Shown: positions 13,678 through 40,300 of the stretch, piece by piece
How the letters are laid out: each line of letters starts with the position of its first letter
Numbering within the stretch: position 1 is the first letter of the stretch
Source of the DNA: an uncultured Bradymonadales bacterium
GTDB taxonomy: Bacteria; Myxococcota_A; Bradymonadia; JAFGEP01
Direction of reading: 5' to 3'
DNA length: 64,000 nucleotides
Assembly (NCBI GenBank): GCA_964503485.1
Contig: CAZDBH010000002.1
Location: 508 to 64,507, forward strand
Position numbers and translations under genes: made by a program
Notes under the pieces: generated by a model
Told to the model about the DNA's origin: nothing
The model's database searches: none
What the model saw: the letters and a program-made list of their open reading frames with translations, nothing else

Positions 13678-14259
13678 TTGTTCGGCATGTCGATGACAGA
13701 AGTGGTCCTGATTCTCGCCATAGCCCTGGTGGTGTTGGGACCCGAGAAACTGCCCAGCATGGCAAAAGCGCTGGGGCGGGCTATGCGGGAGTTCCGAAAG
13801 GCGACCCGTGAGATTCAGGCCAGCCTTCATGTCGAGGAAGTGCGGCGCAACATAGGCCTCAAAGAGAAAGAAGAAGAACGGGCGCGGAAACACAAACAGA
13901 ACCGCGCCAAAGCCGCCAAGACCGAAGAGAGCGAGTCCGCCGAGTCCGAAGAGGCCGAAGAGGCCGAGTCCGCCGAAACTGACGAAGCCGACACCGAGAT
14001 CGAGTCCGACGAATCAGCGCCGGACGAGTCCGAGCCGACCATCAAGCCCGCGACGGGTACGGTGGCAACGGGAAGCACCGTCAAGGCCACCCCGAAGGCA
14101 AAAGCGACTCCCAAAAAGAAAGAACAACCAGCAGCCGAAAAGGCCGCGGCAGCTAAGAAGGCAGGGACTTCCAAGAAGAAAGTAGCCGCCAAAAACAATG
14201 CGGAGACCGAGAAGAAGACAAAGGCTGCCGCGAAGTCCAAGTCGATCTCTAAAGAATAG
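13678..14259 (+). CDS. TatA/TatB-family Sec-independent translocase component with a long Lys/Ala/Glu-rich C-terminal tail.
   Basis: N-terminus MFGMSMTEVVLILAIALVVLGPEKLPSMAKALGRAMREFRKA is the canonical TatA/B TM + amphipathic helix. The ~130-aa K/A/E-rich tail resembles histone H1. tatC lies downstream. Confidence 0.7.
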   Translation: MFGMSMTEVVLILAIALVVLGPEKLPSMAKALGRAMREFRKATREIQASLHVEEVRRNIGLKEKEEERARKHKQNRAKAAKTEESESAESEEAEEAESAETDEADTEIESDESAPDESEPTIKPATGTVATGSTVKATPKAKATPKKKEQPAAEKAAAAKKAGTSKKKVAAKNNAETEKKTKAAAKSKSISKE

Positions 14260-14584: not shown

Positions 14585-15427
14585 ATGGACGCCCCTGAAC
14601 CCGTCATCCAGCAAAAAATGCCCTTCCTGGAGCATCTGTCAGAGCTTCGCTGGCGAATACTGTGGTGTTTGGCGTCGATTGTCGTCGGTTTCATAGTCGC
14701 TTGGACCTTCCACACCGAGATCTTCAATTGGCTCATGGTGCCCTACGAGGACGCAGTCCGCTCCCTACCGGACCCCCTCCACACGGCCATCTTGAGCACA
14801 ATACCCGAGAGTGGGGTGGCGTTCGAGCCGCAGCACGTCCCGATATTGACCTACAAATCGCTGATCGAGCCCTTCTTCGTCTATTTGAAGACGGCGCTCC
14901 TGGCGGGTCTATTTCTCGCCATCCCCGTCATCTTCTGGCAGCTCTGGCTGTTTATCTCGCCGGGCCTGTACAAGAAGGAACGTAGGCTAGCGGCGCCGTT
15001 TATTATCGGTAGCACCCTGTTCTTTCTGTTGGGCGCATCGTTTTGCCGTTACTTCGTCATGGAGCCGGCCTGCAAAGTGCTGATGTCAATCGGTGCCCGA
15101 AACACTGAACCTCTCATCATGATGCAGGACTACTTCGGGCTCATGTCCCGCTTCCTGCTCGTGTTTGGGGCCGTTTTCGAGATGCCGATTATCATCGGGT
15201 TCCTGTCCGTTCTGGGCTTTGTGACCCACAAGACCCTGATTAAGCACTGGAAAGTCGCATTGGTCTGCTCGTTCATCATGGGGGCGATGCTGACACCACC
15301 AGATCCATTCACGCAGACCGCTCTCGCGGTGCCGCTGATCCTCCTGTACGGGATCAGTATCGGCGTAGCGTACGTATTCAGCACCCGAAGGCGGAAAAAG
15401 GTCGAAGCCTCTGTCTCGCTGGATTGA
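14585..15427 (+). CDS. tatC: Sec-independent protein translocase TatC.
   Basis: LEHLSELRWRILWCL N-terminus, six TM segments, FISPGLYKKERR motif. 280 aa. Confidence 0.9.
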   Translation: MDAPEPVIQQKMPFLEHLSELRWRILWCLASIVVGFIVAWTFHTEIFNWLMVPYEDAVRSLPDPLHTAILSTIPESGVAFEPQHVPILTYKSLIEPFFVYLKTALLAGLFLAIPVIFWQLWLFISPGLYKKERRLAAPFIIGSTLFFLLGASFCRYFVMEPACKVLMSIGARNTEPLIMMQDYFGLMSRFLLVFGAVFEMPIIIGFLSVLGFVTHKTLIKHWKVALVCSFIMGAMLTPPDPFTQTALAVPLILLYGISIGVAYVFSTRRRKKVEASVSLD

Positions 15428-15448
15428 CGCCGCCCGAGGCGATTCACC

Positions 15449-17977
15449 CTAGAACGTCCGATCGATCCGATCCAAGGTCCTCATATCCAGCTGTTCCGGG
15501 GTCAGGGCGTACTCCACAGGCTCCGTTCCTTCACGAAATGGAAGCCAAACACCGGGCGCACCCTCCTGGGCGAGCAGGCCGGTTTCGACATCGACTCGAA
15601 TCAGGTGAATGCCAGGTGGCAGCGGGTCTGTAAGGGAACGCTGCTCTAGGCCATCGAGAGCCGTCTGCATGAAGTCGAGCCAGATTGGTAGGGCGACCTC
15701 GGAGCCGTGTTCTCCTCTTCCCAGTGGGCGCGTGTTCCGATCGGTCCCGATCCACACCGTGGATACGATCCGCTCCGTGAATCCCACGAACCAGGCATCA
15801 AAGGCGTTGGTCGTCCCGGTCTTTCCCGCTGCTGGGTGGCCCAGCTCTCGGGCCGCGTGGCCCGTTCCCATCCGCACTACGTCGCGCAGCACAAACGTTA
15901 TCAGGTAAGCTGTCGTCGAATTGATGACGGGGTAGTCGATTTCTGACAGATCCCGGTAGGCCCGGTGCAACATCGCAGACACCTCCCCGGAGCTGTCGAA
16001 GAAGGCGCCCCGGTCGGCGATGAGTTCATCTCTGCCACTCACAACGGTGACGACACTGGTCGGACGATTACGGTACCCGCGGTTTGCGAACACTCCATAG
16101 GTCGTTGTGACGTCGATTGGGTGAACACAGGAAGCGCCCAGCGAAAGTGAATCGACTGATTCCATCGGCGTGGTAATGCCGAGTGCCCGCGCCCGCTCAA
16201 TGACATTGTAGACGCCAACCCGTTTGTATACCCGGATTGTGGGCAAGTTCCTGGAACGTATGAGCGCGTCTCGCAGCAGCAAATCGCCGTGAAAGTTGCC
16301 ATCAGCGTTGCGAGGCCGCCAAATCTCGATTCCGCCCTGGAAGAGCTGCATCGGCACATCGATGAGCGGCGTCGCCAACGTCATACCCAGGTCTAGCGCT
16401 CGGCTGAAGACGACCGGCTTGAAGGTACTTCCAGGCTGTCGGCATGCCCGCGTGACACGATTGAATTGGCTTCGGTCGTAGTCCGTTCCCGCGGCCATCG
16501 CCACGAGATAGCCCGTGTCCAGATCCATTGCCGATAGGGACCCTTCCAACCGTGGAACCTGAGTAAGAGTGGCGCCGGCAAGGTCATGAGCAAGCACCAC
16601 GACATCGCCGGGCGATACGACTCCGATAGCCGACTCCACCTCGACAGCGTTTTCCTCGGACTCCACATCGAAGGGCGACGCCCATCGCCAAGCGTCCAAC
16701 CCCAGTTCGATCTGGGCACCGTCACTCCACACCAGAATGCTGTTTTCATCCACGACCTCGACAAGCCCCGGGCGACGGGTCTGATGGTCTGGAAAGTGGC
16801 GCTCCGTCAGTTCGTCGAAGGTCTCTCGGCTGATGGACAGGTCCGAGCGGAGCGGGCCCCTATAGCCCTGCCGATGGTCTATCTCCTCGACGCCGCGAAG
16901 AAGGGCTGCCTCGGCTGTTCGCTGTTGGGTCAGGGAGGTCGCAGCAACCACCCGTAGGCCTCCATGTCGCCAGGCCTCTGGCCCGAACTCGTCGCGAACG
17001 TCGAGCCGAATCTGATCGGTGAGGAAGGGCAGAAGCCGCTCCGGAACCTCGCCCCGCTCTCTCAATACGAGGGGTTCCAAGGCCGCCAGTCGAGCCGCCT
17101 CGGTGCTCGCGAAGCCGAGAGCAGACATCCGCTCGAGCACCATATTCCGTCGTGTAAGGGCGCGTTCCGGGTAGTCGTACGGTTCAAAAGTGGAGGGAGC
17201 GGAGGCGATTCCCGCCAGTACTGCCACCTCAGCGAGAGACAATCCGTCCAGAGTTTGATCGAAGTACATCAGAGCAGCGGCCCGAACGCCGTAGGCCCCG
17301 GCGCCAAGGTAGATTCGGTTGAGGTAGGCCTCGAGTATATCTTCCTTGCTGTAGTTTGCTTCGATGCGCCGAGAAAGCAGGAGTTCGATGAGCTTGCGCT
17401 CGTAGGTTCGCGATTGCCCGACAAAAATCTTGGCTAGTTGCTGGGTGATCGTCGATCCGCCCTGCTGGATCTGGCCGCTTTGAAAGTTCGCGATTGCAGC
17501 TCGCGCAATGGCCCGAAGGTCCACCCCGCCGTGGAGAAAGAAGTCATCATCCTCAGCCGCAAGAAAGGCTTCGACCAGAAGTGGGGGCAACTCATTGTAG
17601 TTGGCCCAAGGAGCGCCGCCCCGCACGAGACCGCCGATCGGCGTCCCGTCAACCGTGTAGACTTGAGTTGCACTGCCCCGGGGTGGCTCCAAGATCAGCG
17701 GGCTCGCTTGGACGCTGTCGAGCATCGCTCCGTAGTAGACTGCCAGTGCGAGGCACGAGGGGAGTGGAAGCCAAATCGCGACGACGAACAACGCGCGCAG
17801 CAGAGTCCAGAGGAAGAACTTGCTTTGAGTGTTGCCGAGTATCAGCACGATACAGTCTATTCTGCTCCGTCTGGTGAGTCGTCGTCGCAGCCGTTGGGTG
17901 TGTCTCCCGGTGCATGAGCCGATTCGGGAGGGGTCTCGCCCAGGTCGCCCGGTGGCGACGAGAATGGCTCGTGACAC
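15449..17977 (-). CDS. Class A penicillin-binding protein (PBP1A-type bifunctional glycosyltransferase/transpeptidase).
   Basis: GT51 motifs (EDDDFFLHGGVDLRAI, QGGSTITQQLAKI), an N-terminal TM anchor, and a transpeptidase domain with STFKP-like and KTGT motifs (GSTFKPVVF, AGKTGTTNA). Confidence 0.85.
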   Translation of the reverse strand: MSRAILVATGRPGRDPSRIGSCTGRHTQRLRRRLTRRSRIDCIVLILGNTQSKFFLWTLLRALFVVAIWLPLPSCLALAVYYGAMLDSVQASPLILEPPRGSATQVYTVDGTPIGGLVRGGAPWANYNELPPLLVEAFLAAEDDDFFLHGGVDLRAIARAAIANFQSGQIQQGGSTITQQLAKIFVGQSRTYERKLIELLLSRRIEANYSKEDILEAYLNRIYLGAGAYGVRAAALMYFDQTLDGLSLAEVAVLAGIASAPSTFEPYDYPERALTRRNMVLERMSALGFASTEAARLAALEPLVLRERGEVPERLLPFLTDQIRLDVRDEFGPEAWRHGGLRVVAATSLTQQRTAEAALLRGVEEIDHRQGYRGPLRSDLSISRETFDELTERHFPDHQTRRPGLVEVVDENSILVWSDGAQIELGLDAWRWASPFDVESEENAVEVESAIGVVSPGDVVVLAHDLAGATLTQVPRLEGSLSAMDLDTGYLVAMAAGTDYDRSQFNRVTRACRQPGSTFKPVVFSRALDLGMTLATPLIDVPMQLFQGGIEIWRPRNADGNFHGDLLLRDALIRSRNLPTIRVYKRVGVYNVIERARALGITTPMESVDSLSLGASCVHPIDVTTTYGVFANRGYRNRPTSVVTVVSGRDELIADRGAFFDSSGEVSAMLHRAYRDLSEIDYPVINSTTAYLITFVLRDVVRMGTGHAARELGHPAAGKTGTTNAFDAWFVGFTERIVSTVWIGTDRNTRPLGRGEHGSEVALPIWLDFMQTALDGLEQRSLTDPLPPGIHLIRVDVETGLLAQEGAPGVWLPFREGTEPVEYALTPEQLDMRTLDRIDRTF

Positions 17978-22837: not shown

Positions 22838-24085
22838 TTGTTTTACGAGACTTTCATTTCTACACGCTACCTCAGGGCGACCCGCAAGTCGTTTTTGAGC
22901 ACCATCACGCTGATCAGTGCGGTCGGGGTGATCCTCGGTGTAACCGCTCTGACCGCAGTTGTCAGCGTCACCGGTGGGTTCCAAACCGCCTATCGAGAGC
23001 GGGTCCTCGGCGTGTATCCGCACATCATGTTGTTGCCGACCTCGAGCCATTTTCCCGAATACCGCGAGGTGATGGCCGCCATTGATGGCGTCGACGGTGT
23101 GAGCAGCGTGAACGCCTTCGTGCGGCAGCCCCTCATGGTCTACACCGAGTCAGCGCGAGCCATGATTGTGGCCCGCGGAATGGATATGGAGTACCTCACC
23201 GGCGAGGCGGGGCTCGCCGAGTATGTCACCGAAGGTGAGCTCTCGGACCTCGCGTACGATCCCTATTCGCCCGACGAGCAGCTCCCCGGTCTCTTTTTGG
23301 GGAGCGAACTGGCTCGTACCCTCCAGGCGGAGATAGGGACTGAGGTGACAGCGGTCTCTCACCTACGCGGAACAGGCTTTGCCCTTGGGCCGAGTCAGAT
23401 GGCGCCAACCAGCGTTCGCTTCAGGGTCGCTGGTGTCTTCGAGGTCGGCTACAACGACTTCGACAGTCACTTGGCACTCACTGACCTGCGGACCGTCCAG
23501 CACTTTCTCAACCGGGGCGATGTGGTGACGGGAATCGATGTCCGGGTGGACGACATCTTCGCGACTGCCGCCATCGGTTCGACGATAACGGGACGCCTGC
23601 CAGCCGGTGGCTACCAAGCCCTTGGATGGGATGAAATCCACCGAAATCTCTTTCGAAGTCTCGCGCTCCAGAAGCTCGCGCTGAGCCTCATCATGATCAT
23701 CATCGTTGTCGTAGCCAGTTTCAACATCGTGAGTACCCTCGTGATGATGGTGCTCGACAAGACCAAAGAGATCGCCATTCTCAAGTCGCTCGGGGCGAGC
23801 AGGGGCGGGATCAGACGGATATTCATGACCCAGGGGCTCATCATCGGGACCGTGGGTACGTCGCTGGGCCTCGCGATGGGCTACGTCGTCTGCCGTCTCG
23901 TCGAACGCGTCGACTTCGGGCTCGATCCCAGCGTCTACAAGATCTCCTCTCTACCCGTGGACATGCAGCTGCACGAGTTCCTGTTCGTGGCCCTGATCTC
24001 TGTTTGCATCAGTATCGCCGCGACGGCGGTGCCGGCCGTTCTAGCGGGTCGCATCAAGCCAGTAGACGGTCTGCGATACGACTGA
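22838..24085 (+). CDS. Lipoprotein-releasing system permease, LolC/LolE (FtsX-like) family.
   Basis: N-terminus FISTRYLRATRKSFLSTITLISAVGVILGVTAL matches the LolC/E start (F..RYLR...F.S.IS.ISM.G...GV.AL). Large periplasmic loop and C-terminal FtsX-type 3-TM module. No adjacent LolD ATPase. Confidence 0.75.
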   Translation: MFYETFISTRYLRATRKSFLSTITLISAVGVILGVTALTAVVSVTGGFQTAYRERVLGVYPHIMLLPTSSHFPEYREVMAAIDGVDGVSSVNAFVRQPLMVYTESARAMIVARGMDMEYLTGEAGLAEYVTEGELSDLAYDPYSPDEQLPGLFLGSELARTLQAEIGTEVTAVSHLRGTGFALGPSQMAPTSVRFRVAGVFEVGYNDFDSHLALTDLRTVQHFLNRGDVVTGIDVRVDDIFATAAIGSTITGRLPAGGYQALGWDEIHRNLFRSLALQKLALSLIMIIIVVVASFNIVSTLVMMVLDKTKEIAILKSLGASRGGIRRIFMTQGLIIGTVGTSLGLAMGYVVCRLVERVDFGLDPSVYKISSLPVDMQLHEFLFVALISVCISIAATAVPAVLAGRIKPVDGLRYD

Positions 24086-31155: not shown

Positions 31156-32286
31156 TTACTGCGCGACAATATGGAATTCAACACGGCGATTTGCAGCTCG
31201 ACCGTCAGCTGTCTCGTTCGTCTCGATAGGTGATTCTTCGCCGTGACCAACCGATGTGGTTCGCCCAGCGCTGATTCCCGCTCTAATCAAGTAGGACCGG
31301 ACGCTACCGGCGCGCTCATCGGAGAGGCGCAGGTTGTAGCGAGCCGATCCAGAGCTGTCGGTGTGGCCTTCTATGCGAAGCTCCATCCCCGGATTCGACG
31401 CGAGGATAGACACAATCTCGTCCAAGATTGGGTAGCTGTCAGGCAGAATATCCGACGAGTCATAGGCGAAGTGAATCTGCTCCGTGATTTCGATGCGATC
31501 GTCGTGAATGACGGTAAACTCGAGCTCGGGTTCGGGGTCATCCTCGGGACAGCCGTCCTCATCCTCGTCCCCATCGAAATCTTCGGGGTCGTTGGGGCAT
31601 TGGTCGTCGTAGTCGAGAACGCCGTCGCCATCGTTGTCTAGGTCCGGGCAGCCGTCCTCATCCTCGAATAGGTCGAAGTCCTCAGGATCGTTGGGACACT
31701 GATCCTCGAAGTCGTAGAGACCGTCGAGATCATTGTCTTCCTCGGGTCAGCCGTCCTCATCCTCAAAATCATCGAAGTCTTCTGGATCCAGCGGGCATAG
31801 GTCGTCGTTATCGAGGATCCCATCGCCGTCAGAGTCGGCTACGAAGTCGGGCCAACACTCCGGTCGGACATCGACGATCGCGGCCGCCGCATCGGCATTG
31901 ATGTGGGCGATCTCTAGGTGGTGCGTCGCTTCGAGATAGGAGCCCCGGTCGAGTTCGTAGTTTCCGAAATCGAGATTCGACTCGGCCATCGCGAGTTCAC
32001 GCTCGGCACAGCGATAAGCTGCCTCGCGAATCCGATCGAGGGTCGACCCAACGTAAAGCGCTTCGGCCTGCAGCTGTTTTCCAGATGCGCAGCCCGTTGT
32101 GGCCGTCGACAGGGCAGTTATCAAACCCAGCAGTCCCAGGATGACGACTGAAGCGTTGAGCTTCCAGTATGAAGCCGGCCCACTCTGCGAATGAACGACG
32201 ATGGGGCTGTGCACTGTATTCACCAACTGGGTTCGCACCAGATTCTCTCCATGTCTCCTGCAACTACGAGCCAGCGGAGACGCCAT
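31156..32286 (-). CDS. OmpA-family peptidoglycan-binding lipoprotein with thrombospondin type-3 (TSP3) Ca-binding repeats. The reading frame is continuous except for ONE in-frame TGA at 31747..31749 in place of a conserved Cys codon (either a pseudogene or recoding).
   Basis: Manual minus-strand translation in a single frame gives …CPLDPEDFDDFEDEDG*PEEDNDLDGLYDFEDQCPNDPEDFDLFEDEDGCPDLDNDGDGVLDYDDQCPNDPEDFDGDEDEDGCPEDD… then the OmpA C-terminal domain (LRIEGHTDSSGSARYNLRLSDERAGSVRSYL…NRRVEF). The track splits it into 31747..32286 and 31156..31425. Confidence 0.65.
31500..31860 (-). repeat. Tandem TSP3-repeat-encoding DNA repeats (units like gggcagccgtcctcatcctc).
   Basis: Near-identical ~24-nt units recur four times on the plus strand and encode EDEDGCP(D/E) on the minus strand. 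Confidence 0.6.
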
Positions 32287-32294
32287 TCTTGGTC

Positions 32295-32660
32295 CTATTC
32301 GCCCAGACCGTCGTCATCCAATCCCAAACCTGGAGCGTTCCTGTTGGGATTCGCAACCGCCCGCTCCAGAGCCGCTTCGGCCAACTCGCGGGCACGCTGT
32401 CCGTACTCTTCAGCGTGTTGGAAGTCGGAATACCCCCATTCTTCTTTGGCTTTCTCGAGATATTGAACTGCGCTCACATACTCGTATGTGGCGAACTCCT
32501 CCGCCTGCTCCATTTCTGCTGCCCGAACGGCGAGCTCGGCGTCTCGAATTGTGGGAGTCGAAATTACAGCCCCGCAAGCCCCTAAAAGGGTGACCATGCC
32601 GCAGAGGCACAGCACTGGGACGAAAAACGCTCTAACCATGTTCATACCCCATCGTCCCAA
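32295..32660 (-). CDS. Small lipoprotein, DUF4398-like (commonly partnered with OmpA-family proteins).
   Basis: Signal + lipobox (MVTLLGACGA). Helical AELAVRAAEMEQAEEFA…AKEEW content. Its stop lies 8 bp upstream of the OmpA/TSP3 gene. Domain assignment is from memory and tentative. Confidence 0.35.
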   Translation of the reverse strand: MGRWGMNMVRAFFVPVLCLCGMVTLLGACGAVISTPTIRDAELAVRAAEMEQAEEFATYEYVSAVQYLEKAKEEWGYSDFQHAEEYGQRARELAEAALERAVANPNRNAPGLGLDDDGLGE

Positions 32661-32873: not shown

Positions 32874-34835
32874 ATGTCCCGGCCCAAGGGGCTACTTGAA
32901 TATGTCGTGGTTTTTGAGAACGGACGACGTTCCGACCCGCTATCTCTGTCTACTCTCAGAGAGATGATATCCGGAGGCCTCATTGGTGAGGGCGACCGGG
33001 TCTCGAAGGACGGCTCCGAGGCATCTGAGTACTACCTGTTCGATGAACTCGTCGACCTGTGGGATGTCGAATCCGCGACCTTCGATATTGGTGGAGATCC
33101 CCGCGACGACGGGCCCATCCTGGCAAGTATCAGGACAGCTTCCTCTCCGCCACCCGTGCCGAGCAGGCAACCGGCCCCGCAGAGTCCCCAGGAAGAAGAC
33201 GAAGGCAGCACCTCGAACCTGGGAGTTCGGGCCGCACAGGACGTATTGACTGCGAGTCTCGGAGTCGAGTCCGGTGAGCCCCTGCCAGCCGAGACCGCGG
33301 CACTTCTGGACGACATTGCTTCGATGTTGGAATTCGAGATCGCAGATCTCGGCTCGGCACCCGCAGCGCCGCCAGTACAACCCGTCAGCCCGGCGCCGCT
33401 GCCCGCACCACCAGGTTTTGCTGGCTACGACGCCCTGTCGGATGATCTACTCGACCCGGTCACGATTCGTGACCTTCTGTTTGACGCATCGCTCTACACG
33501 GCACTGGCCGTCTCCTACGAAGCCACCGAACAAGAGCTGAACGAGGCCTATCTCACACGCGCCGAGCTGATCGCTCAGCGTCAACGAGTCATGACGACCA
33601 AGGACATCGACCAGGTCGCGGCCCTCGAAGATATTAGGCGCCTGATTTTCCAATCCTTCGAGTTTCTTCGCAACGACGCAAAGCGGACCGCCTATGATCG
33701 TGCAGGCCAGCGCTCGGGTTCTTTCAAACCGTCAGCCCAGGAGTTGGGGCTGACCAGAATGGACCCAGACTCGCAAGAGTTCAGGACCACTGGCACCTTC
33801 TCGAGCGCGAGCAGAATGGCGCTCAAAAACCGCACCAAGGGCGACATCACGCAGCGCCTCAAGCAGTTCACGACCGCCAGCTTGCCGCAGGTCAATCGCT
33901 CTCGTTTGAGCGGTTCGATGCCTGCCCTGAGATCGATCGATGATCCACTGCTCGGGCAAAACGCGGGGCCGCGAGTTTACACCGCGCCGCACAAGGCCCT
34001 CGAGTCGGGTGAGCTGTCCACCATCGGGCTGAGTGACGCCAAACTCTTCAAGGGTGAAGTACCCACCGACGCACGCGAGCGGGAAGAGCGGTCGAAAACC
34101 TCCGACAAGCCGAGGGCACACCGCCGCACCTTCGAAGCGCTTGATATCACCGGCGAGCAAGATGCTGTCCAGTGGGGTTCCCTAAGCCACCAGAGGGGGA
34201 CCGGCTTTCTACAGGCCGCACTCCTGACAGTCGGGCTTTGCCTTATCTCGATTGTGGTCGTCCTCACCACCGAATTGGGTGCGAACGAATTCGACTACAA
34301 CGGCCCCACCGAGTGGTTCTACGGCAGAAATGGGCTTCTGATCGTGGGGGCGATCCTCGCACTGATCGCACTCCGGAAGGAGTCCCCAATCGCACTCGGT
34401 TTTCGGCCTGCCATACTCTTTTCGATCCTGGCCGTGATGATCGGAGTCGCCCTCGGCTTTGTTGGCTCATTTGTAGCCCCGATTCGGATTGCCGAACCAA
34501 AACCGCTCTTAATCATGGGCGTCATCCTGCTCCAGGCCGTGGCTCACGAAACCTACTTCCGCGGCTTTGTGACCCGAGTACTACTCCTCGAAATGAAGAG
34601 CCCAATGGTGGCGGTTTTCACAAGCTGCTTCTTCTACGGTGTGTTCTATCTGACCTTCAGAAACGTCATGGTCCAAGAGGGTTTCTGGCGCATCTACTAC
34701 AGCCTCTTGCTCTACGGCTTCGGGCTGGGCGGTGTCTACGGATGGCTCTACTACAAGTCGAAGAGCGTCTGGCCGAGCTTCCTCGCTCATTTCCTGACCA
34801 TCATGGTCACGTTCCTCACCTCTAGAGTAGCTTGA
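32874..34835 (+). CDS. Multi-domain membrane protein: N-terminal DUF4339/GYF-like domain, a degenerate J-domain-like segment (no HPD), Pro-rich linker, and a C-terminal CPBP (CAAX-protease/Abi-like) intramembrane metalloprotease domain.
   Basis: C-terminal TM region with HETYFRGFV (EExxxR-like CPBP motif 1), FYGVFYLTFRN, and HFLTIM (HxxxN/D-type motif). The N-terminus VVFENGRRSDPLSLSTLREMISGG resembles DUF4339. 653 aa. Confidence 0.5.
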   Translation: MSRPKGLLEYVVVFENGRRSDPLSLSTLREMISGGLIGEGDRVSKDGSEASEYYLFDELVDLWDVESATFDIGGDPRDDGPILASIRTASSPPPVPSRQPAPQSPQEEDEGSTSNLGVRAAQDVLTASLGVESGEPLPAETAALLDDIASMLEFEIADLGSAPAAPPVQPVSPAPLPAPPGFAGYDALSDDLLDPVTIRDLLFDASLYTALAVSYEATEQELNEAYLTRAELIAQRQRVMTTKDIDQVAALEDIRRLIFQSFEFLRNDAKRTAYDRAGQRSGSFKPSAQELGLTRMDPDSQEFRTTGTFSSASRMALKNRTKGDITQRLKQFTTASLPQVNRSRLSGSMPALRSIDDPLLGQNAGPRVYTAPHKALESGELSTIGLSDAKLFKGEVPTDAREREERSKTSDKPRAHRRTFEALDITGEQDAVQWGSLSHQRGTGFLQAALLTVGLCLISIVVVLTTELGANEFDYNGPTEWFYGRNGLLIVGAILALIALRKESPIALGFRPAILFSILAVMIGVALGFVGSFVAPIRIAEPKPLLIMGVILLQAVAHETYFRGFVTRVLLLEMKSPMVAVFTSCFFYGVFYLTFRNVMVQEGFWRIYYSLLLYGFGLGGVYGWLYYKSKSVWPSFLAHFLTIMVTFLTSRVA

Positions 34836-34838
34836 GTC

Positions 34839-35165
34839 GTGCGCAAGTCGGGCTGGGTACTTCCGACGTTGCTACTGATTCCTCTACTGGCCTGGTCATG
34901 GCGCCAGCTGCGCTCAGACCAGCCGCCCTTGACCTTCACAACCGCCAGTATGCAAGTCGAACTGGGAACCAAAGAGCCGCAACCCGGCCTGCTCCAGTGT
35001 ACTCCCAGCGACGAGGTGCTCAGCACAGAGCTGGCGGCGCTACAATACGTCCACTTCTCAGGGCAGCCATGCGCCGAAGATAGGGGCACGCATGTGCTCG
35101 AAGAGTGGCTCGGTGGCAGGTTGCTCTGGAGTCCTGGCAATACGATACGAGTCGAGAGATGGTAA
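34839..35165 (+). CDS. Possible small secreted protein (GTG start).
   Basis: 108-aa ORF in the gap between the CPBP gene and lnt, with a hydrophobic N-terminus (WVLPTLLLIPLLAWSW). No similarity recognised. May be spurious. Confidence 0.25.
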   Translation: MRKSGWVLPTLLLIPLLAWSWRQLRSDQPPLTFTTASMQVELGTKEPQPGLLQCTPSDEVLSTELAALQYVHFSGQPCAEDRGTHVLEEWLGGRLLWSPGNTIRVERW

Positions 35166-36637
35166 GCCGTCTTCTGTGGGCCAGCATTGCCGGAATCCTA
35201 TTTGCCCAAGCCTACCTCCACTCGGCCCCCTTCGCTCTGGCCGGTGCAGTCGCTCTGGGACTTGCGCTGAGGCCTCCCTTCGACCGGAATTGGCGACGGC
35301 AGATAGCGAGAGTCTTCATCGTTCAACAAATCTGGATCGCCCTGCACGGTTGGGGGTTCCTGCACTACGGCTGGAGGCTATATGTCGCCACGCTCTTCTA
35401 CTTCGCGCTTTCCGGCGCCCTGCTGTCGATTCTGGTGATCGGTTTCGCCCGCAGGCCTCGGGTAGGCCCGCTGCGGGTGGCCGCAGCTTGGATGACGGTG
35501 GAAGCGCTCCACCAGGTCGGATCCTTCGGCTTCCCGCTTTTTTTGGGCGGGACCCAAATCGAAATGCCGTGGCGCACCTCGATGGGCGTTATCGGGGCTG
35601 TCGGCCTGAGTGGTCTGATTATCGGGTTGGGCGTCGCTGCCACCCGTGCTCGCATGTCGGCCCTTCGCTGGGCAGCAGCCCTCGTTGTGTTTTCACTCTT
35701 GGGTCTGTGGCAGCCCGGGATAGAAGAGGTTGGCGAATCACAGGATGTAGCGATTGTTCAGGGCGGTGTCCCCAGTTGGTTCTACCAGATCGTGGATGAC
35801 TCGGAAGCGGCTGCCTATCTTGTCGAGGACCACTATTTCGGGCTCGCCGAAGAGGCATTTGTCGGCGGTCCTGATCTCGTCCTGCTACCCGAAGCTGCAC
35901 TCCACCACGCAATTGCCCAAACTGGTGACTATTCGGTTGATCCATTGTTTCGAGCCTCGGACAACCCAGAGAACGCAACGACCCAGCTTTTGACTGGAGC
36001 CTATCGAGAGACCTGGGTCGGAGACGATCTGCGCCTCTACAACTCGGCCCTCCTGCTCGATGCGTCAGACAGCCGGCACCTAATCGCTGTGGTCGACAAG
36101 CGTCTGCTGGCCCCCGTCGTCGAGTCCCTGTTTACGCCAGGAACCGGTGATGGTCTGGTCGAGGCCCGCGCTATGACGATCGGCGTGCTCATCTGCTTCG
36201 AATCGATCTATCCCAGAATGGGCAGGCAAGTTGCGGAATCGGCGAGCGTGGTAGCGATTCTCACCAACGACGCGGGCTTTGTACGAGCTCCAGTGAGCCT
36301 CACGCACGCCCGCCAGGGTTGGAGCCGAGCGATCGAACTGGGACGGCCGATCGTACGCTCTGCCCAAGCAGGTATCTCCTTCATCGTCGACCACCGGGGA
36401 CAGATCCAGGCCCAGCTCGACTTCTTCGAGCAAGGTGTTCTGCGTGGAACGGTTCAACCCACCACTGGCTGGACCTGGTTTACCCTCTTCGGCTTCATGC
36501 TCGCGCCGGTTGCGGGGTTACTACTCTGCCTCTTCATCGTTCTGGGTGACCGCCGGTTTGGAAAGCCCGCGGCGGTAGAGCCAGCCGAGGAGGCCAAGGA
36601 TGAGGGCGTAGCCGACAAGGAAACTGGCGTACCCTGA
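35162..36637 (+). CDS. lnt: Apolipoprotein N-acyltransferase (Lnt).
   Basis: N-terminal polytopic membrane region followed by a CN-hydrolase (nitrilase) domain with the catalytic-Cys context IGVLICFESIYP. Length ~490-510 aa. The start is ambiguous (35105 or 35162). Confidence 0.7.
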   Translation, partial: VSRLLWASIAGILFAQAYLHSAPFALAGAVALGLALRPPFDRNWRRQIARVFIVQQIWIALHGWGFLHYGWRLYVATLFYFALSGALLSILVIGFARRPRVGPLRVAAAWMTVEALHQVGSFGFPLFLGGTQIEMPWRTSMGVIGAVGLSGLIIGLGVAATRARMSALRWAAALVVFSLLGLWQPGIEEVGESQDVAIVQGGVPSWFYQIVDDSEAAAYLVEDHYFGLAEEAFVGGPDLVLLPEAALHHAIAQTGDYSVDPLFRASDNPENATTQLLTGAYRETWVGDDLRLYNSALLLDASDSRHLIAVVDKRLLAPVVESLFTPGTGDGLVEARAMTIGVLICFESIYPRMGRQVAESASVVAILTNDAGFVRAPVSLTHARQGWSRAIELGRPIVRSAQAGISFIVDHRGQIQAQLDFFEQGVLRGTVQPTTGWTWFTLFGFMLAPVAGLLLCLFIVLGDRRFGKPAAVEPAEEAKDEGVADKETGVP

Positions 36638-37378
36638 GACGTTGTGCATCGGACCCATCGCAAGCTCGCTGCCTCCGTGCTCACCCAGAGTCGAAATCGT
36701 GGCGATTCGAGTGCCGTTCACAAGCAGTGAGAAGGGCAGGGCCAGAACAACCAGAACCAGAAGTTGGCGCTCGCGAATCCGGAAAATTAGACCGAGAAGC
36801 AAGGTGTACAACGACAGTGCTGCCAACGTGTTGACCCCACTGCATGTCTCATCGACTAGGTTGTAGAAGGTAGGGGTGAGTATCAGGAGGTCTTGCTTTT
36901 GTACCTCGAAACCGAGGACCGTCAACCACACACAGGCCACGTTCGCCGACAAGTGTTGCAGCATCAGCTCGAATCGGGCCATCCATCCTGTAGTTAGAGG
37001 CGCCATCAAAATGAGTGGCGTGAGCGGCAGTAGGTAACGCCCGAGCAGTTCGCGTCCGCCGACTAGCCCAACAGCTGCCCCGACGGTGAGCCAAAACCCC
37101 ACAGCCCCGACGATCGGTTCATCCAACACCCAGGCGAGGCAGTTGACGCACAGGGCCAGTAACGTTGCGACGACAAGGACGTGCGAGGAGGTGCGTGAGC
37201 GGGTTCGGTCGTCGTCGGTTCGAAAACGGATCCAACAGGCGACGCCGGCGATAATCGGCATCATTGCGCTGAACGAAACGTCGATGAGTTCGTTGCTTCG
37301 CCACCAACCGAGGAGGTCTGTCAGGAATGGGACAGTCGAAGCGATGAGGACTACTGCGAAGGCGAGCCGGCGCATCAT
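36521..37378 (-). CDS. Exosortase/archaeosortase-family transpeptidase-like membrane protein.
   Basis: 8-TM-type protein of 285 aa with the family's catalytic-Cys motif (DETCSGVNTLAALS), an NxxR motif (LLVNGTRIATI) and a downstream His (GEHGG). It starts 11 bp after the stop of the 1365-aa gene, so the two are co-transcribed. Its 3' end overlaps lnt by ~117 nt. Confidence 0.6.
   Translation of the reverse strand: MMRRLAFAVVLIASTVPFLTDLLGWWRSNELIDVSFSAMMPIIAGVACWIRFRTDDDRTRSRTSSHVLVVATLLALCVNCLAWVLDEPIVGAVGFWLTVGAAVGLVGGRELLGRYLLPLTPLILMAPLTTGWMARFELMLQHLSANVACVWLTVLGFEVQKQDLLILTPTFYNLVDETCSGVNTLAALSLYTLLLGLIFRIRERQLLVLVVLALPFSLLVNGTRIATISTLGEHGGSELAMGPMHNVSGYASFLVGYALILGLLGWLYRRGLSKPAVTQNDEEAE
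36550..36575. other. Imperfect palindrome ccgccgg-tttggaaag-cccgcggcgg inside the lnt / exosortase convergent 3' overlap (possible bidirectional terminator, or a sign that one gene end is mis-called).
   Basis: Seen directly. Both convergent ORFs read through it. Confidence 0.3.
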
Positions 37379-37389
37379 CCTCTCTCGCG

Positions 37390-40300
37390 TTAGTCAGCGC
37401 ACTCGCAGCTGTCGCTGCAGCTGCTGCACTCCCCAATATGGCCCGTATCACAGTCTTCGTTTACAGACCAAAGAACCTGGCCGGCCTTCGACTCGTCCTC
37501 TCCTTCACCCGAAGTCACTGCGCCGACTGTTCCACCGCAGGCATCGTCATTGATGAAGATCTTGTAATACGGGTTCGGGAAGCCGCCGCCATACGGATAC
37601 TGGCGTACCCGCACTTGGTAGTCGCCCGCCGGCAGGTCATAGAAAGCGAATTCACGGCCCGGGAAGTCCGCGACCGATCGCGACACCTGAGTCTCGCAGA
37701 CGTAGTGGTCGCTCTCTGGGTCCAATTCGGGCAGACAGGGGCAGTCCTCGTCCGCCGGGAAACCACACTCGTAAACAGTCTGGTCAATCCCATCCCGCAA
37801 CGGATCGGGATACAGTAGGGCAATCGCCTGGCCTGCTTCATCGAAGTGCCTGAGGTACAGTTCGATGTCGCCGCCTTCGGTGGTGAATGAGAACCAGTCA
37901 TCTTTGTCCCAGCTACAGAGCGAGCCCACGTGATCAGACGCGGAAGTTCCCGGCTCTAGAACACAGGTCTCGTCAGTACAACCGAGGTCGTTTGGTCCGG
38001 GATAGCGATCCCAATCTTCGGGCGTCAAATCCCACGGATCGTAACGTTCCGGCGGTGGACAGTCTCGCCCGCCCGCGCCGTTTACCTCGACCAAGATGTC
38101 GTAATCGGCCCCAGCCACGAGACTTCCCGCGTCGACCGTAAGCCGGTAGGTCGCTACAATCTTGCCCGCTGGGGCGTTGGCTGTCCCGTCGATGAGGATG
38201 TCGTAACAGGTGTTCGCTGACTCGCAAGCCGGTGTCACATCGACCCCGTACCGGAATTGATCGGAGCCTTCTCGGCCGAAGAAGACTTCGACTTTCTCGG
38301 CGTTATCCTCGGCGTCATCGCCGTTCATTCGAACGCGCACTGTATACCGGTCACCTTCGAGAAAACGTAGGTGGTAGACGTCTTCGTCGGAGGGACAAAT
38401 CACGAGATTATCAGCCGGCAAACATTCGCAGAACGCCGTGTCGTCGGTACCGCAGGTCGTCGTGAGGAACTCGCCGCAGCCGTCGCCCCAACCAGCCAAC
38501 AACGTGGCTCGGTGAAGCAGTTCTGGATGCTCGGAGTCGTTGGGCTCGAGTTCGTCATCCTCACAGGGCGTTTCAATGTAGTCGATCGTCAACGAGTAGG
38601 ACTCGCCGAGTACCGGGATGAGTTCATCATCGTCCGGGTTGCTGCTGGCGACCCGCACGAAATAGATGGCTGCTTCCCCGTCGACTGTGCCGCCCACTCG
38701 TTCGTAGATGGGTTCGTCGGTCAGAAGCACACCACTGGGCAGACCGGTTGTATCCATCTCGACCAACTCCCGATCCTCCCCGTCGAGTACCCATTCGTAG
38801 ATGGTCATTTCGAGGGCGTCGTCTTCCTGGAAGAGGGAGGCTTGCAGGAACCCTTCTGATGGGGCCCGGAAAATCTGGACCAGATAGAAATCCTCATCTA
38901 GATCCACGGAATCATCGACTACTGCTGGGCAGATGCGCGCTTCCTCGAAGGACGCGGTGGCAGGCCGACTCGGGATGATGAACTTGCTATCGGTCGGCAA
39001 GTCCTGGGCATTTTCTGGGGTATTGTTGTGTCGGTCGGCACCCAGCGCGATGCTATCATAGTAGTCTCGTTCACAGCGCGCCGTTCCCATCCCGCTCTCG
39101 AACCGAAAGGTGTAGGCCGCTTCTGCGCTCCCTCCGGGGATTTGCATACGGAAGTAGTACTCATCGGTGGCAGCCACGGACCGGTCCAGAATCCGGTCGT
39201 CTGTGTCGTCCAAGTCGGCCGGATTGTCCCAGGCGCCGGCAGAAACGATGGAGTCGGCTTCCAAATCGACACCCCCATCTGTACCCAAGTCCATTTGTAT
39301 TCCGGGATGACCGTCACGCGAATCAGTGACCGCTGTCAGGGTTTGACCGGCAAAGAGCACCATGCTGAAGAAGTCCACGTCGCCCGTGCACATGGTGAGG
39401 TCGGTGAAACTGCGGTCGACCAGGCGGCCGGCTGAGCCCAGAGGTGTAGCAGAAATCGTGCTGTTGTTCACCTCGAGAGGGTCTGCTTCGCAGAGGAACG
39501 GGCGGTCGAGCAGCACTTCGAGTGAGTAGTCGACGCACTCGAGACCGACCGTGAAGACTTGAACGAAATAGAGTTCGCTTTCGGGCACGAGGTAATCGTT
39601 AACCTGAACGTCGGTCGGTACTTCGGAATCGGTCGGTCGGAACACCACGTCCCCACCGTTGTTGAAAAAGGACATCGCTATGAAGCCCTCCGATTGCGCG
39701 TGCACCGATATGCGGTCGCCGGCGTTGAGATACATGACGTAGTGGTCGAAATCGGCGCCGGTTGACGCGGTAGCATCGGCACACCAGCTGTCCTCAGTGT
39801 CGTCACATGGCCTCAGATCAGTTGAGCCGGTGCAGTCCCGGAAGCTGACCACGGCGTCGCCAGAGTAGAATGGAATACAGGTAGCCGTAGAGCGGGTATC
39901 GTCGCGAATCACGTCCGTCTCGAGGGCATCGAGACACCCGCTCTGGCATCGGCCGGTGAGTGGATTGCAGGATTGACCGTCCGGGCAACTGTCCTCGGTT
40001 TCGTCGCTCTCTGGCGTACAGTCGACTTCACATTCTGGGGTCGAACAATGCGTACCCAGCGGGCACTCCTCATCTGCGACGCAGCCGCACTGATCTGTCG
40101 CGACCGAGCAAACCTGCCCGTCGGGGCAGTGGCACTCGTCGCCGTCACAGCCAGGTATGCAGCGCTGCAGTGTCGGTGAGCAGAATTCGCCAAGCGGACA
40201 CTCGTCGCAGGCTCCGTCCGGGTCGCAGCGCGGGATCCCGCAGTCACGGGTTTCGGGATCGCATATGAGTTCGTCGAAACAGGTGTCCTCGTCGGCCTCT

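Follow-up and report, generated by a model that had tools for sequence, protein, structure and literature searches.

Why should the genes for a CPBP-fold membrane protein related to CAAX proteases, for apolipoprotein N-acyltransferase (Lnt), and for an exosortase (Xrt) lie side by side in an uncultured Bradymonadales bacterium? The locus in question spans positions 32,874 to 37,378 of a 64,000-nucleotide stretch of contig CAZDBH010000002.1 (assembly GCA_964503485.1), referred to here as the window. It was originally predicted to bring together three envelope-protein processing enzymes, the first of them from the family that includes the myxosortase MrtX, for the acylation, cleavage, and sorting of surface lipoproteins, possibly by a hybrid or novel anchoring route. 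All three genes were found within these 4.5 kb with the identities proposed, but the region comprises four genes (Table 1), as the prediction had missed a 108-aa open reading frame (ORF) between the CPBP gene and lnt as well as the convergent overlap of lnt and the exosortase gene, xrt. The explanation favored here, to which a probability of about one half is assigned, is that the locus encodes an exosortase module with an obligate, non-proteolytic CPBP partner, a co-expressed housekeeping Lnt, and PEP-CTERM-type substrates that are mostly encoded elsewhere. Such a module would be lineage-specific to uncultured marine Bradymonadales-like Myxococcota. Taken as a whole, the original prediction stands in its gene identities, its synteny, and its assignment of the CPBP protein to PF02517, and finds no support in the likeness to MrtX, the count of three enzymes, the obligate place of Lnt, and the hybrid route.

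A shared gene order, in which the gene for a giant Cys-rich lipoprotein is followed by xrt and then, convergently, by lnt, the small ORF, and the CPBP gene, recurs in seven lineages with exosortase identities of 38–71%, and its recurrence down to 38% indicates that the clustering is more than chance. With percentages denoting exosortase identity to the window, all five genes are present in loci L005/L006 (71%) and L010/L014 (46%), and all but the small ORF in L019/L020 (41%), while L018 (39%) and L021/L022 (38%) show the giant gene, xrt, and lnt on contigs that stop inside lnt. L012/L009 (45%) holds the CPBP gene, small ORF, lnt, and xrt, with the giant gene replaced by genes for a 66-aa protein and an Amidase_3 protein, and L017 (46%) keeps the whole order except for lnt. 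Three components have each dropped out of the locus in one lineage (Lnt in L017, the small ORF in L019, and the giant gene in L012/L009), and in each case xrt and the CPBP gene stay paired, as they do on every contig long enough to show both. The predicted conservation of the CPBP-lnt-xrt arrangement is therefore seen in several related lineages, although Lnt is gone from the L017 locus and so is not an obligate part of it. An exosortase approximately 38–41% identical to that of the window is encoded in the same locus of the metagenome-assembled genome GCA_016931535.1, which has been tabulated as a 'Bradymonadales bacterium' of the class Bradymonadia (PMC11509652).

The genes are also tightly packed. 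The small ORF begins 4 nt past the stop of the CPBP gene, its last 7 nt coincide with the start of lnt at the ATG, and the giant gene ends 11 nt upstream of the xrt start in the window and overlaps that start in L017 and L019. The final 39 codons of xrt are antisense to the final 39 codons of lnt, an arrangement that places the conserved last transmembrane (TM) helix and tail of the exosortase opposite an unconserved C-terminal tail of Lnt. Convergent overlaps of ∼60–120 nt, by called coordinates, are found in L005, L010, L012, L018, L019, and L021, which are all six of the other lineages carrying both genes.

That the locus is no functional unit, and instead holds independent housekeeping envelope genes kept as neighbors by the retention of a long syntenic block, is unlikely, even though part of the conservation does reflect plain descent. 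The far-side neighbors (DUF4398, OmpA-like, 427-aa, FadL-like, TPR, and Ser/Thr kinase proteins) are collinear and 47–65% identical in L010 and L019, and the block from the Ser/Thr kinase gene through the TPR, FadL-like, OmpA-like, and DUF4398 genes to the giant proteins is collinear in L005 as well. Lnt and the small ORF have each been able to leave the locus, and scans for promoters and terminators returned nothing above chance. The argument for a unit is carried by the rearranged loci, since xrt and the CPBP gene remain paired in L012 and L017 despite their reshuffled flanks. The start and stop overlaps inside the CPBP-small ORF-lnt operon, and those that join the giant gene to xrt, likewise argue against simple inheritance of neighbors, as does the rarity of the exosortase and CPBP clades, given that each sufficiently long contig with one also has the other. 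An independent precedent exists in four EpsH-like proteins fused to a CAAX protease-like domain, which were read as a functional link (Haft et al., 2006; PMC1569441); the association of exosortase with CPBP has thus been known in this form since 2006.

The exosortase is recognized by PF09721 (131.2 bits, cut-off 25.7, E 5.5e-38) and by the TIGR04178 signature (57.3, cut-off 23), is predicted to contain about eight TM segments, and carries Cys179, Arg224, and His245, all three invariant in an alignment of 11 clade members. It reaches the cut-off of none of the named NCBIfam subtypes compared (XrtA, B, C, D, J, N, O, T, V, and W, and the cyanoexosortases), scoring best against XrtA (87.5, cut-off 208) and lower against the others. 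Five other clade members likewise fall below every named subtype, yet above the general family signature. When 1.84 billion cluster representatives were searched with HMMER, the clade amounted to approximately 10 clusters scoring 162–495 bits, with the next matches at no more than 120 bits. The exosortase of the window also occurs unchanged on marine metagenome contigs. The exhaustive HMMER search was needed to reveal the clade: word-indexed protein searches gave just three, five, and two relatives, two scans of GTDB genomes that used exosortase and Lnt peptide patterns, which were probably too clade-specific, gave none, and the 11-sequence exosortase alignment matched nothing when run against JGI metagenome contigs. 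Judged by its sequence features, the enzyme is a real and probably active member of an unnamed exosortase subfamily. One family of exosortase-CPBP fusions bears the NCBIfam name exosortase E/protease XrtE and belongs to the VPEID-CTERM system, but the XrtE model gave no match at E ≤ 0.01. Ten long exosortases among the top 150 representative hits were considered as further fusion candidates; no CPBP domain was found in them, and all ten were exosortase-DUF3485 (EpsI) fusions instead.

The C-terminal domain of the 653-aa protein matches PF02517 as predicted, with residues 544–642 scoring 46.8 bits against this Rce1-like model (cut-off 22.4, E 3.6e-12) within a multi-TM CPBP/Rce1-like domain of approximately residues 440–653. 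The catalytic residues of MrtX are E146, H188, H223, and N227 (PMC11980579), a numbering confirmed by a quoted 13-mer (bioRxiv 10.1101/2023.06.07.544157), where E146 corresponds to the first Glu of the EExxxR motif and H223 and N227 to both residues of HxxxN. The motifs were mapped with hhalign to a canonical CPBP protein (P0160), which reads SEELFFRGF, YGCAHL, and THALV at the three motifs. The canonical EExxxR, FxxxH, and HxxxN set is not intact in the window protein: it reads HETYFR at motif 1, Tyr592 in place of the motif 2 His, and HFLTI at motif 3, with three of the four catalytic residues substituted. Across the eight family members compared, the E146 position is occupied by His (six) or Gln (two), the H188 position by Tyr (six), Phe (one), or Trp (one), and the N227 position by Ile, Leu, Phe, or Val, while neither the second Glu of motif 1 (E559) nor Arg563 varies and seven members retain the motif 3 His.

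Variable and chemically dissimilar residues at catalytic positions indicate a pseudo-protease, and the domain, which no longer has the catalytic Glu, the His that activates water, or the oxyanion Asn, is on this evidence probably a non-proteolytic partner. The three processing enzymes of the original prediction are accordingly more likely two enzymes and a pseudo-protease. Nor does the protein resemble MrtX, as neither the myxosortase core model NF040914 nor the MrtP model NF040674 matched at E ≤ 0.01 and the sole Mrt-type match was to MrtS (20 bits, cut-off 130). Searches for canonical CPBP comparators, by tblastn of the CPBP domain against plasmids and by phmmer against the PDB, returned no match. 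A second cleavage has been supposed for the exosortase/protease fusion proteins, and a domain that is still an active protease, relying on an altered set of catalytic residues ([H/Q]-E, Tyr, His), could perform such a cleavage on exosortase substrates. This possibility is rather improbable: it would account for the invariant E559 and Arg563, the nearly constant motif 3 His, and the fact that the TM domain is the best conserved portion of the protein, but it must contend with His or Gln at the E146 position, aromatic residues at the H188 position, and assorted hydrophobic residues at the Asn position, a variability typical of pseudoenzymes.

The preceding ∼440 residues, whose full extent is backed by conservation in the related proteins P0007–P0009, lack a signal peptide, and this half of the protein is therefore presumably cytoplasmic. 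It contains a GYF-like region at approximately residues 10–65 (GYF_2, E 0.003, below cut-off) and a J-like region at approximately residues 200–280, for which the DnaJ model PF00226 gives 14.4 bits against a cut-off of 27.8 (E 0.041). A profile search of residues 178–313 against the PDB returned J-domain proteins for 23 of the 25 best matches (E 0.009–1, the top ones 0.009–0.05). The HPD motif of the J domain is replaced by QRQR, and with the model score below its cut-off the region can be called J-like at best; its AlphaFold2 model, with a predicted local distance difference test (pLDDT) score of 57.6, is too poor for structural conclusions.

Lnt passes the Pfam models CN_hydrolase and LNT_N and falls 1.5 bits short of TIGR00546 (131.4, cut-off 132.9), and all 10 of its sequence matches in the PDB are Lnt. 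The ATG start is preferred over the upstream extent of the frame, being the one called in relatives. The motifs LPE(245), DK(314)RLLAP, and IC(346)xES are invariant in four orthologs, and Cys346 aligns with ICYE of Pseudomonas aeruginosa Lnt. From motif position, Glu245 and Lys314 are taken to be the counterparts of E267 and K335 of Escherichia coli Lnt. With its Glu-Lys-Cys triad intact, the protein looks like a competent, ordinary enzyme. The 108-aa ORF encodes a hydrophobic N-terminal signal or anchor, two conserved Cys residues, and a conserved C-terminal W...ERW, and has no Pfam match; homologs occupy the same position in L006, L010, L012, L013, and L017, and none is present in L019.

Candidate substrates were sought as PEP-CTERM or MYXO-CTERM-like proteins across the six reading frames of the window and across every retrieved locus. 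No MYXO-CTERM-like C-terminus was found among the ORFs of the window, and its large proteins show neither a TM helix followed by a basic tail at the C-terminus nor a TM segment in their interior. The only credible classical substrate among the sequences scanned is the 66-aa protein of the L012/L009 lineage, in which a signal peptide is followed by eleven residues, PEP, a TM helix, and RARRAQR. Its gene, confined to this lineage, adjoins that of the exosortase and is followed by the Amidase_3 gene, and the mini-protein and the adjacent exosortase look like a dedicated enzyme-substrate pair.

In the favored explanation, the exosortase would cut tripartite signals of the PEP-CTERM type on the outer side of the inner membrane, a specificity suggested because one lineage places the 66-aa PEP-CTERM protein beside xrt. 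The CPBP-fold protein would act as a non-proteolytic intramembrane partner that holds substrates or regulates the exosortase, in line with the known fusions, and its GYF-like and HPD-less J-like domains may work from the cytoplasm, with chaperones or the basic tail of substrates as conceivable targets. Lnt would N-acylate the many lipoproteins of the envelope, being co-expressed with the module and mechanistically dispensable to it, and the upstream giant lipoprotein may be a co-expressed accessory or cargo. The persistence of the xrt-CPBP pair through the loss of each other component and the overlapping gene boundaries are consistent with this arrangement.

Several observations weigh against it. 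Outside L012/L009, neither the 64-kb window nor the ∼250 kb of related loci was found to encode a PEP-CTERM protein. Loss of canonical residues is not proof of inactivity, particularly with the second Glu, the Arg, and mostly the motif 3 His retained, and the motif mapping is based on one canonical CPBP sequence together with the published MrtX numbering. The AlphaFold2 model of the CPBP TM domain (pLDDT 52.8) is too low in confidence for its geometry to be checked. Finally, a ∼25-kb block that includes the FadL-like, TPR, and Ser/Thr kinase genes is syntenic at ∼50% protein identity.

The giant lipoprotein offers a different kind of candidate cargo. The 1365-aa protein has a lipobox-like N-terminus (…AWFQAC), and lipobox-like N-termini are indeed carried by most of the large secreted proteins nearby, as the original prediction had proposed. 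Orthologs are encoded directly upstream of xrt in L005, L010, L017, L018, L019, and L021, and in the P0014 contig this place is taken by a 1288-aa gene. In the window and in the six named loci, the protein ends in a conserved WS..E[DE]C…CxC(x)[D/E]-COOH, with individual termini of CECAD, CECVE, CTCD, CSCD, CVCD, CVCE, and CECSD. The hybrid route of the original prediction would have these lipoproteins triacylated by the local Lnt and processed at their Cys-containing tails by the CPBP protein, the exosortase, or both. Such a route is doubtful. The giant gene lies directly ahead of xrt in six of seven lineages, with an overlap in two of them, the terminal pattern is kept at 32–80% overall identity, and CPBP enzymes characteristically act beside a modified Cys (PMC11980579; bioRxiv 10.1101/2023.06.07.544157). 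However, the tail has neither a TM helix nor a basic cluster and the protein no internal TM segment, so the C-terminal tripartite signal is absent and the usual handle for both membrane enzymes is missing. Read in alignment, the tail is more suggestive of a Cys-rich repeat coming to its end (CG.G..W...EEC) than of a sorting signal. The CPBP domain, moreover, lacks the catalytic Glu, His, and Asn and matches no myxosortase model, and L012 keeps the rest of the module in the absence of the giant gene.

Lnt uses phospholipid as its acyl donor and releases lysophospholipid. In a lipid-coupled machine, an exosortase guided by the pseudo-protease would move cleaved surface proteins onto a phospholipid-derived acceptor that the neighboring Lnt, translationally coupled, supplies or remodels, and the giant lipoproteins ending in CxC[D/E] would be cargo bearing a tag without a TM segment. 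This is very unlikely, though if true it would name the acceptor chemistry of exosortases and define a new type of C-terminal tag. A terminal Cys was also considered as a tag shared by the secreted proteins of 2283, 600, and 859 aa, and was dropped for the 2283-aa family because only the closest relative shares the terminal Cys.

Compared with known systems, the favored exosortase module is closest in its central enzyme to the PEP-CTERM/exosortase system of EpsH and XrtA, with which it shares the fold family (PF09721, TIGR04178), the Cys-Arg-His residues, and, in one lineage, a PEP-CTERM protein beside xrt. Unlike EpsH/XrtA, the exosortase of the window lies outside any exopolysaccharide locus, and EpsI/DUF3485 occurs neither as a domain of the protein nor next to it; the enzyme is accompanied by a CPBP-fold protein, Lnt, a small secreted protein, and a giant lipoprotein, and no PEP-CTERM substrate is found in the 64-kb window. 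The exosortase-CPBP fusions share the linkage of an exosortase with PF02517, but in the window the two are separate genes on opposite strands, and the CPBP protein is extended by ∼440 aa, presumably on the cytoplasmic side, and differs at three of the four catalytic positions. The myxosortases MrtX, MrtC, and MrtP belong to the same Pfam family and the same phylum and likewise carry a variable N-terminal domain before the CPBP core (PMC11980579; bioRxiv 10.1101/2023.06.07.544157), in contrast to which the window offers no core or MrtP match, substituted E, H, and N residues, and no MYXO-CTERM protein. Bradymonadales already use MrtP for MYXO-CTERM (bioRxiv 10.1101/2023.06.07.544157).

Lnt shares LNT_N and CN_hydrolase, the Glu-Lys-Cys residues, and a C-terminal TM helix with the E. 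coli and P. aeruginosa enzymes (PDB 5N6H, 5N6M), but lies marginally under the TIGR00546 cut-off, and its gene is the last of an operon with a CPBP-fold gene and overlaps an exosortase gene at its 3′ end. A literature search found no paper tying an exosortase to Lnt. A CPBP fold without catalytic residues that partners another intramembrane protease, the role proposed here by analogy for the window protein, may be represented by APH-1. Pei and colleagues reportedly described this gamma-secretase subunit, in 2011, as a catalytically inactive CPBP fold. APH-1 is eukaryotic and has a different partner enzyme. What is new in the window and its relatives is the exosortase subfamily; a CPBP partner that is encoded separately, is catalytically degenerate, and carries a cytoplasmic half with J-like and GYF-like regions; the small secreted protein; the frequent presence of lnt in the same operon; the lnt/xrt antisense overlap; and the constant giant lipoprotein upstream.

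Table 1. Features of the locus, its surroundings in the window, and the mini-protein of a related lineage. Coordinates are window positions unless a locus is named.
Feature	Coordinates	Strand	Basis or remark
CPBP-fold membrane protein, 653 aa	32874-34835	+	PF02517 at C-terminus
CPBP-fold TM domain alone	34191-34835	+	Motif mapping against canonical CPBP and MrtX residues
Small secreted-type ORF, 108 aa	34839-35165	+	Positional homologs in relatives
Lnt, 492 aa from ATG 35159	35159-36637	+	CN_hydrolase and LNT_N; ORF open from GTG 35105
lnt/xrt antisense 3′ overlap, 117 nt	36521-36637	both	ORF coordinates
Exosortase (xrt), 285 aa	36521-37378	-	PF09721
Cys-rich giant protein with lipobox-like N-terminus, 1365 aa	37390-41487	-	Orthologs directly upstream of xrt in relatives
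Part encoding conserved giant-protein end	37390-37470	-	
DUF4398 lipoprotein	32295-32660	-	PF14346, E 3.5e-9; divergent from CPBP gene
OmpA-like lipoprotein gene	31156-32286	-	In-frame TGA at 31747-31749
TatA/B	13678-14259		
TatC	14585-15427		
LolC/E-like permease	22838-24085		TIGR02212 288 bits, below 362 cut-off
FG-GAP/ASPIC-UnbV lipoprotein, 711 aa	43173-45308	+	Inserted between both giant protein genes
Lipoprotein, 2283 aa	45334-52185	-	PPC (pre-peptidase C-terminal) domains
ORF of at least 3807 codons	52580-64000	+	Runs off window end
PEP-CTERM mini-protein, 66 aa	L012:5976-6176; L009:1460-1660	+; -	TIGR02595 17.1, cut-off 16

Around the locus, the DUF4398 gene opens a conserved envelope block that continues with the OmpA-like, 427-aa, and FadL-like genes, and is kept as a neighbor in L005, L010, L012, L013, and L019. 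The TatABC genes and the LolC/E permease that the original prediction mentioned are both present in the window. The OmpA-like gene is broken by an in-frame TGA that falls on the Cys position of a repeated 'EDEDGCP' in the L006 ortholog (15119-16201), the two proteins being 91% identical over 360 aa; the gene could be a pseudogene, the codon could reflect an assembly or consensus error, or, improbably, it could be recoded. The counterpart of the 711-aa lipoprotein in L005 is a fragment-like match of 56 aa at 69.6% identity within a 156-aa ORF, and close relatives therefore differ in gene content. Residues 1158–1214 of the 2283-aa lipoprotein weakly match Por_Secre_tail of the type IX secretion system (T9SS), at 27.1 bits against 27; as the match is not C-terminal, it is probably just a beta-sandwich domain. 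The long ORF at the window's end has a signal-peptide-like start near codon 40, and its C-terminus, including the position of any sorting signal, lies beyond the window.

We know of no established attachment target for exosortases, nor of an established reason why some of them are fused to CPBP domains. If the linkage described here were inherited synteny only, the finding would shrink to three correctly annotated envelope genes. As the evidence stands, the clade represents a compact natural system in which an exosortase is accompanied by a small periplasmic protein and by a separately encoded CPBP-fold partner that appears to have abandoned catalysis. Lnt is usually present too, and one lineage adds a single tiny PEP-CTERM substrate next to xrt. 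The unnamed exosortase subfamily and the unnamed CPBP-like family add to what lacks annotation in Bradymonadia, a predatory class within the Myxococcota, and the clade makes the role of the CPBP protein, as scaffold or as protease, and a possible connection to lipid directly testable.

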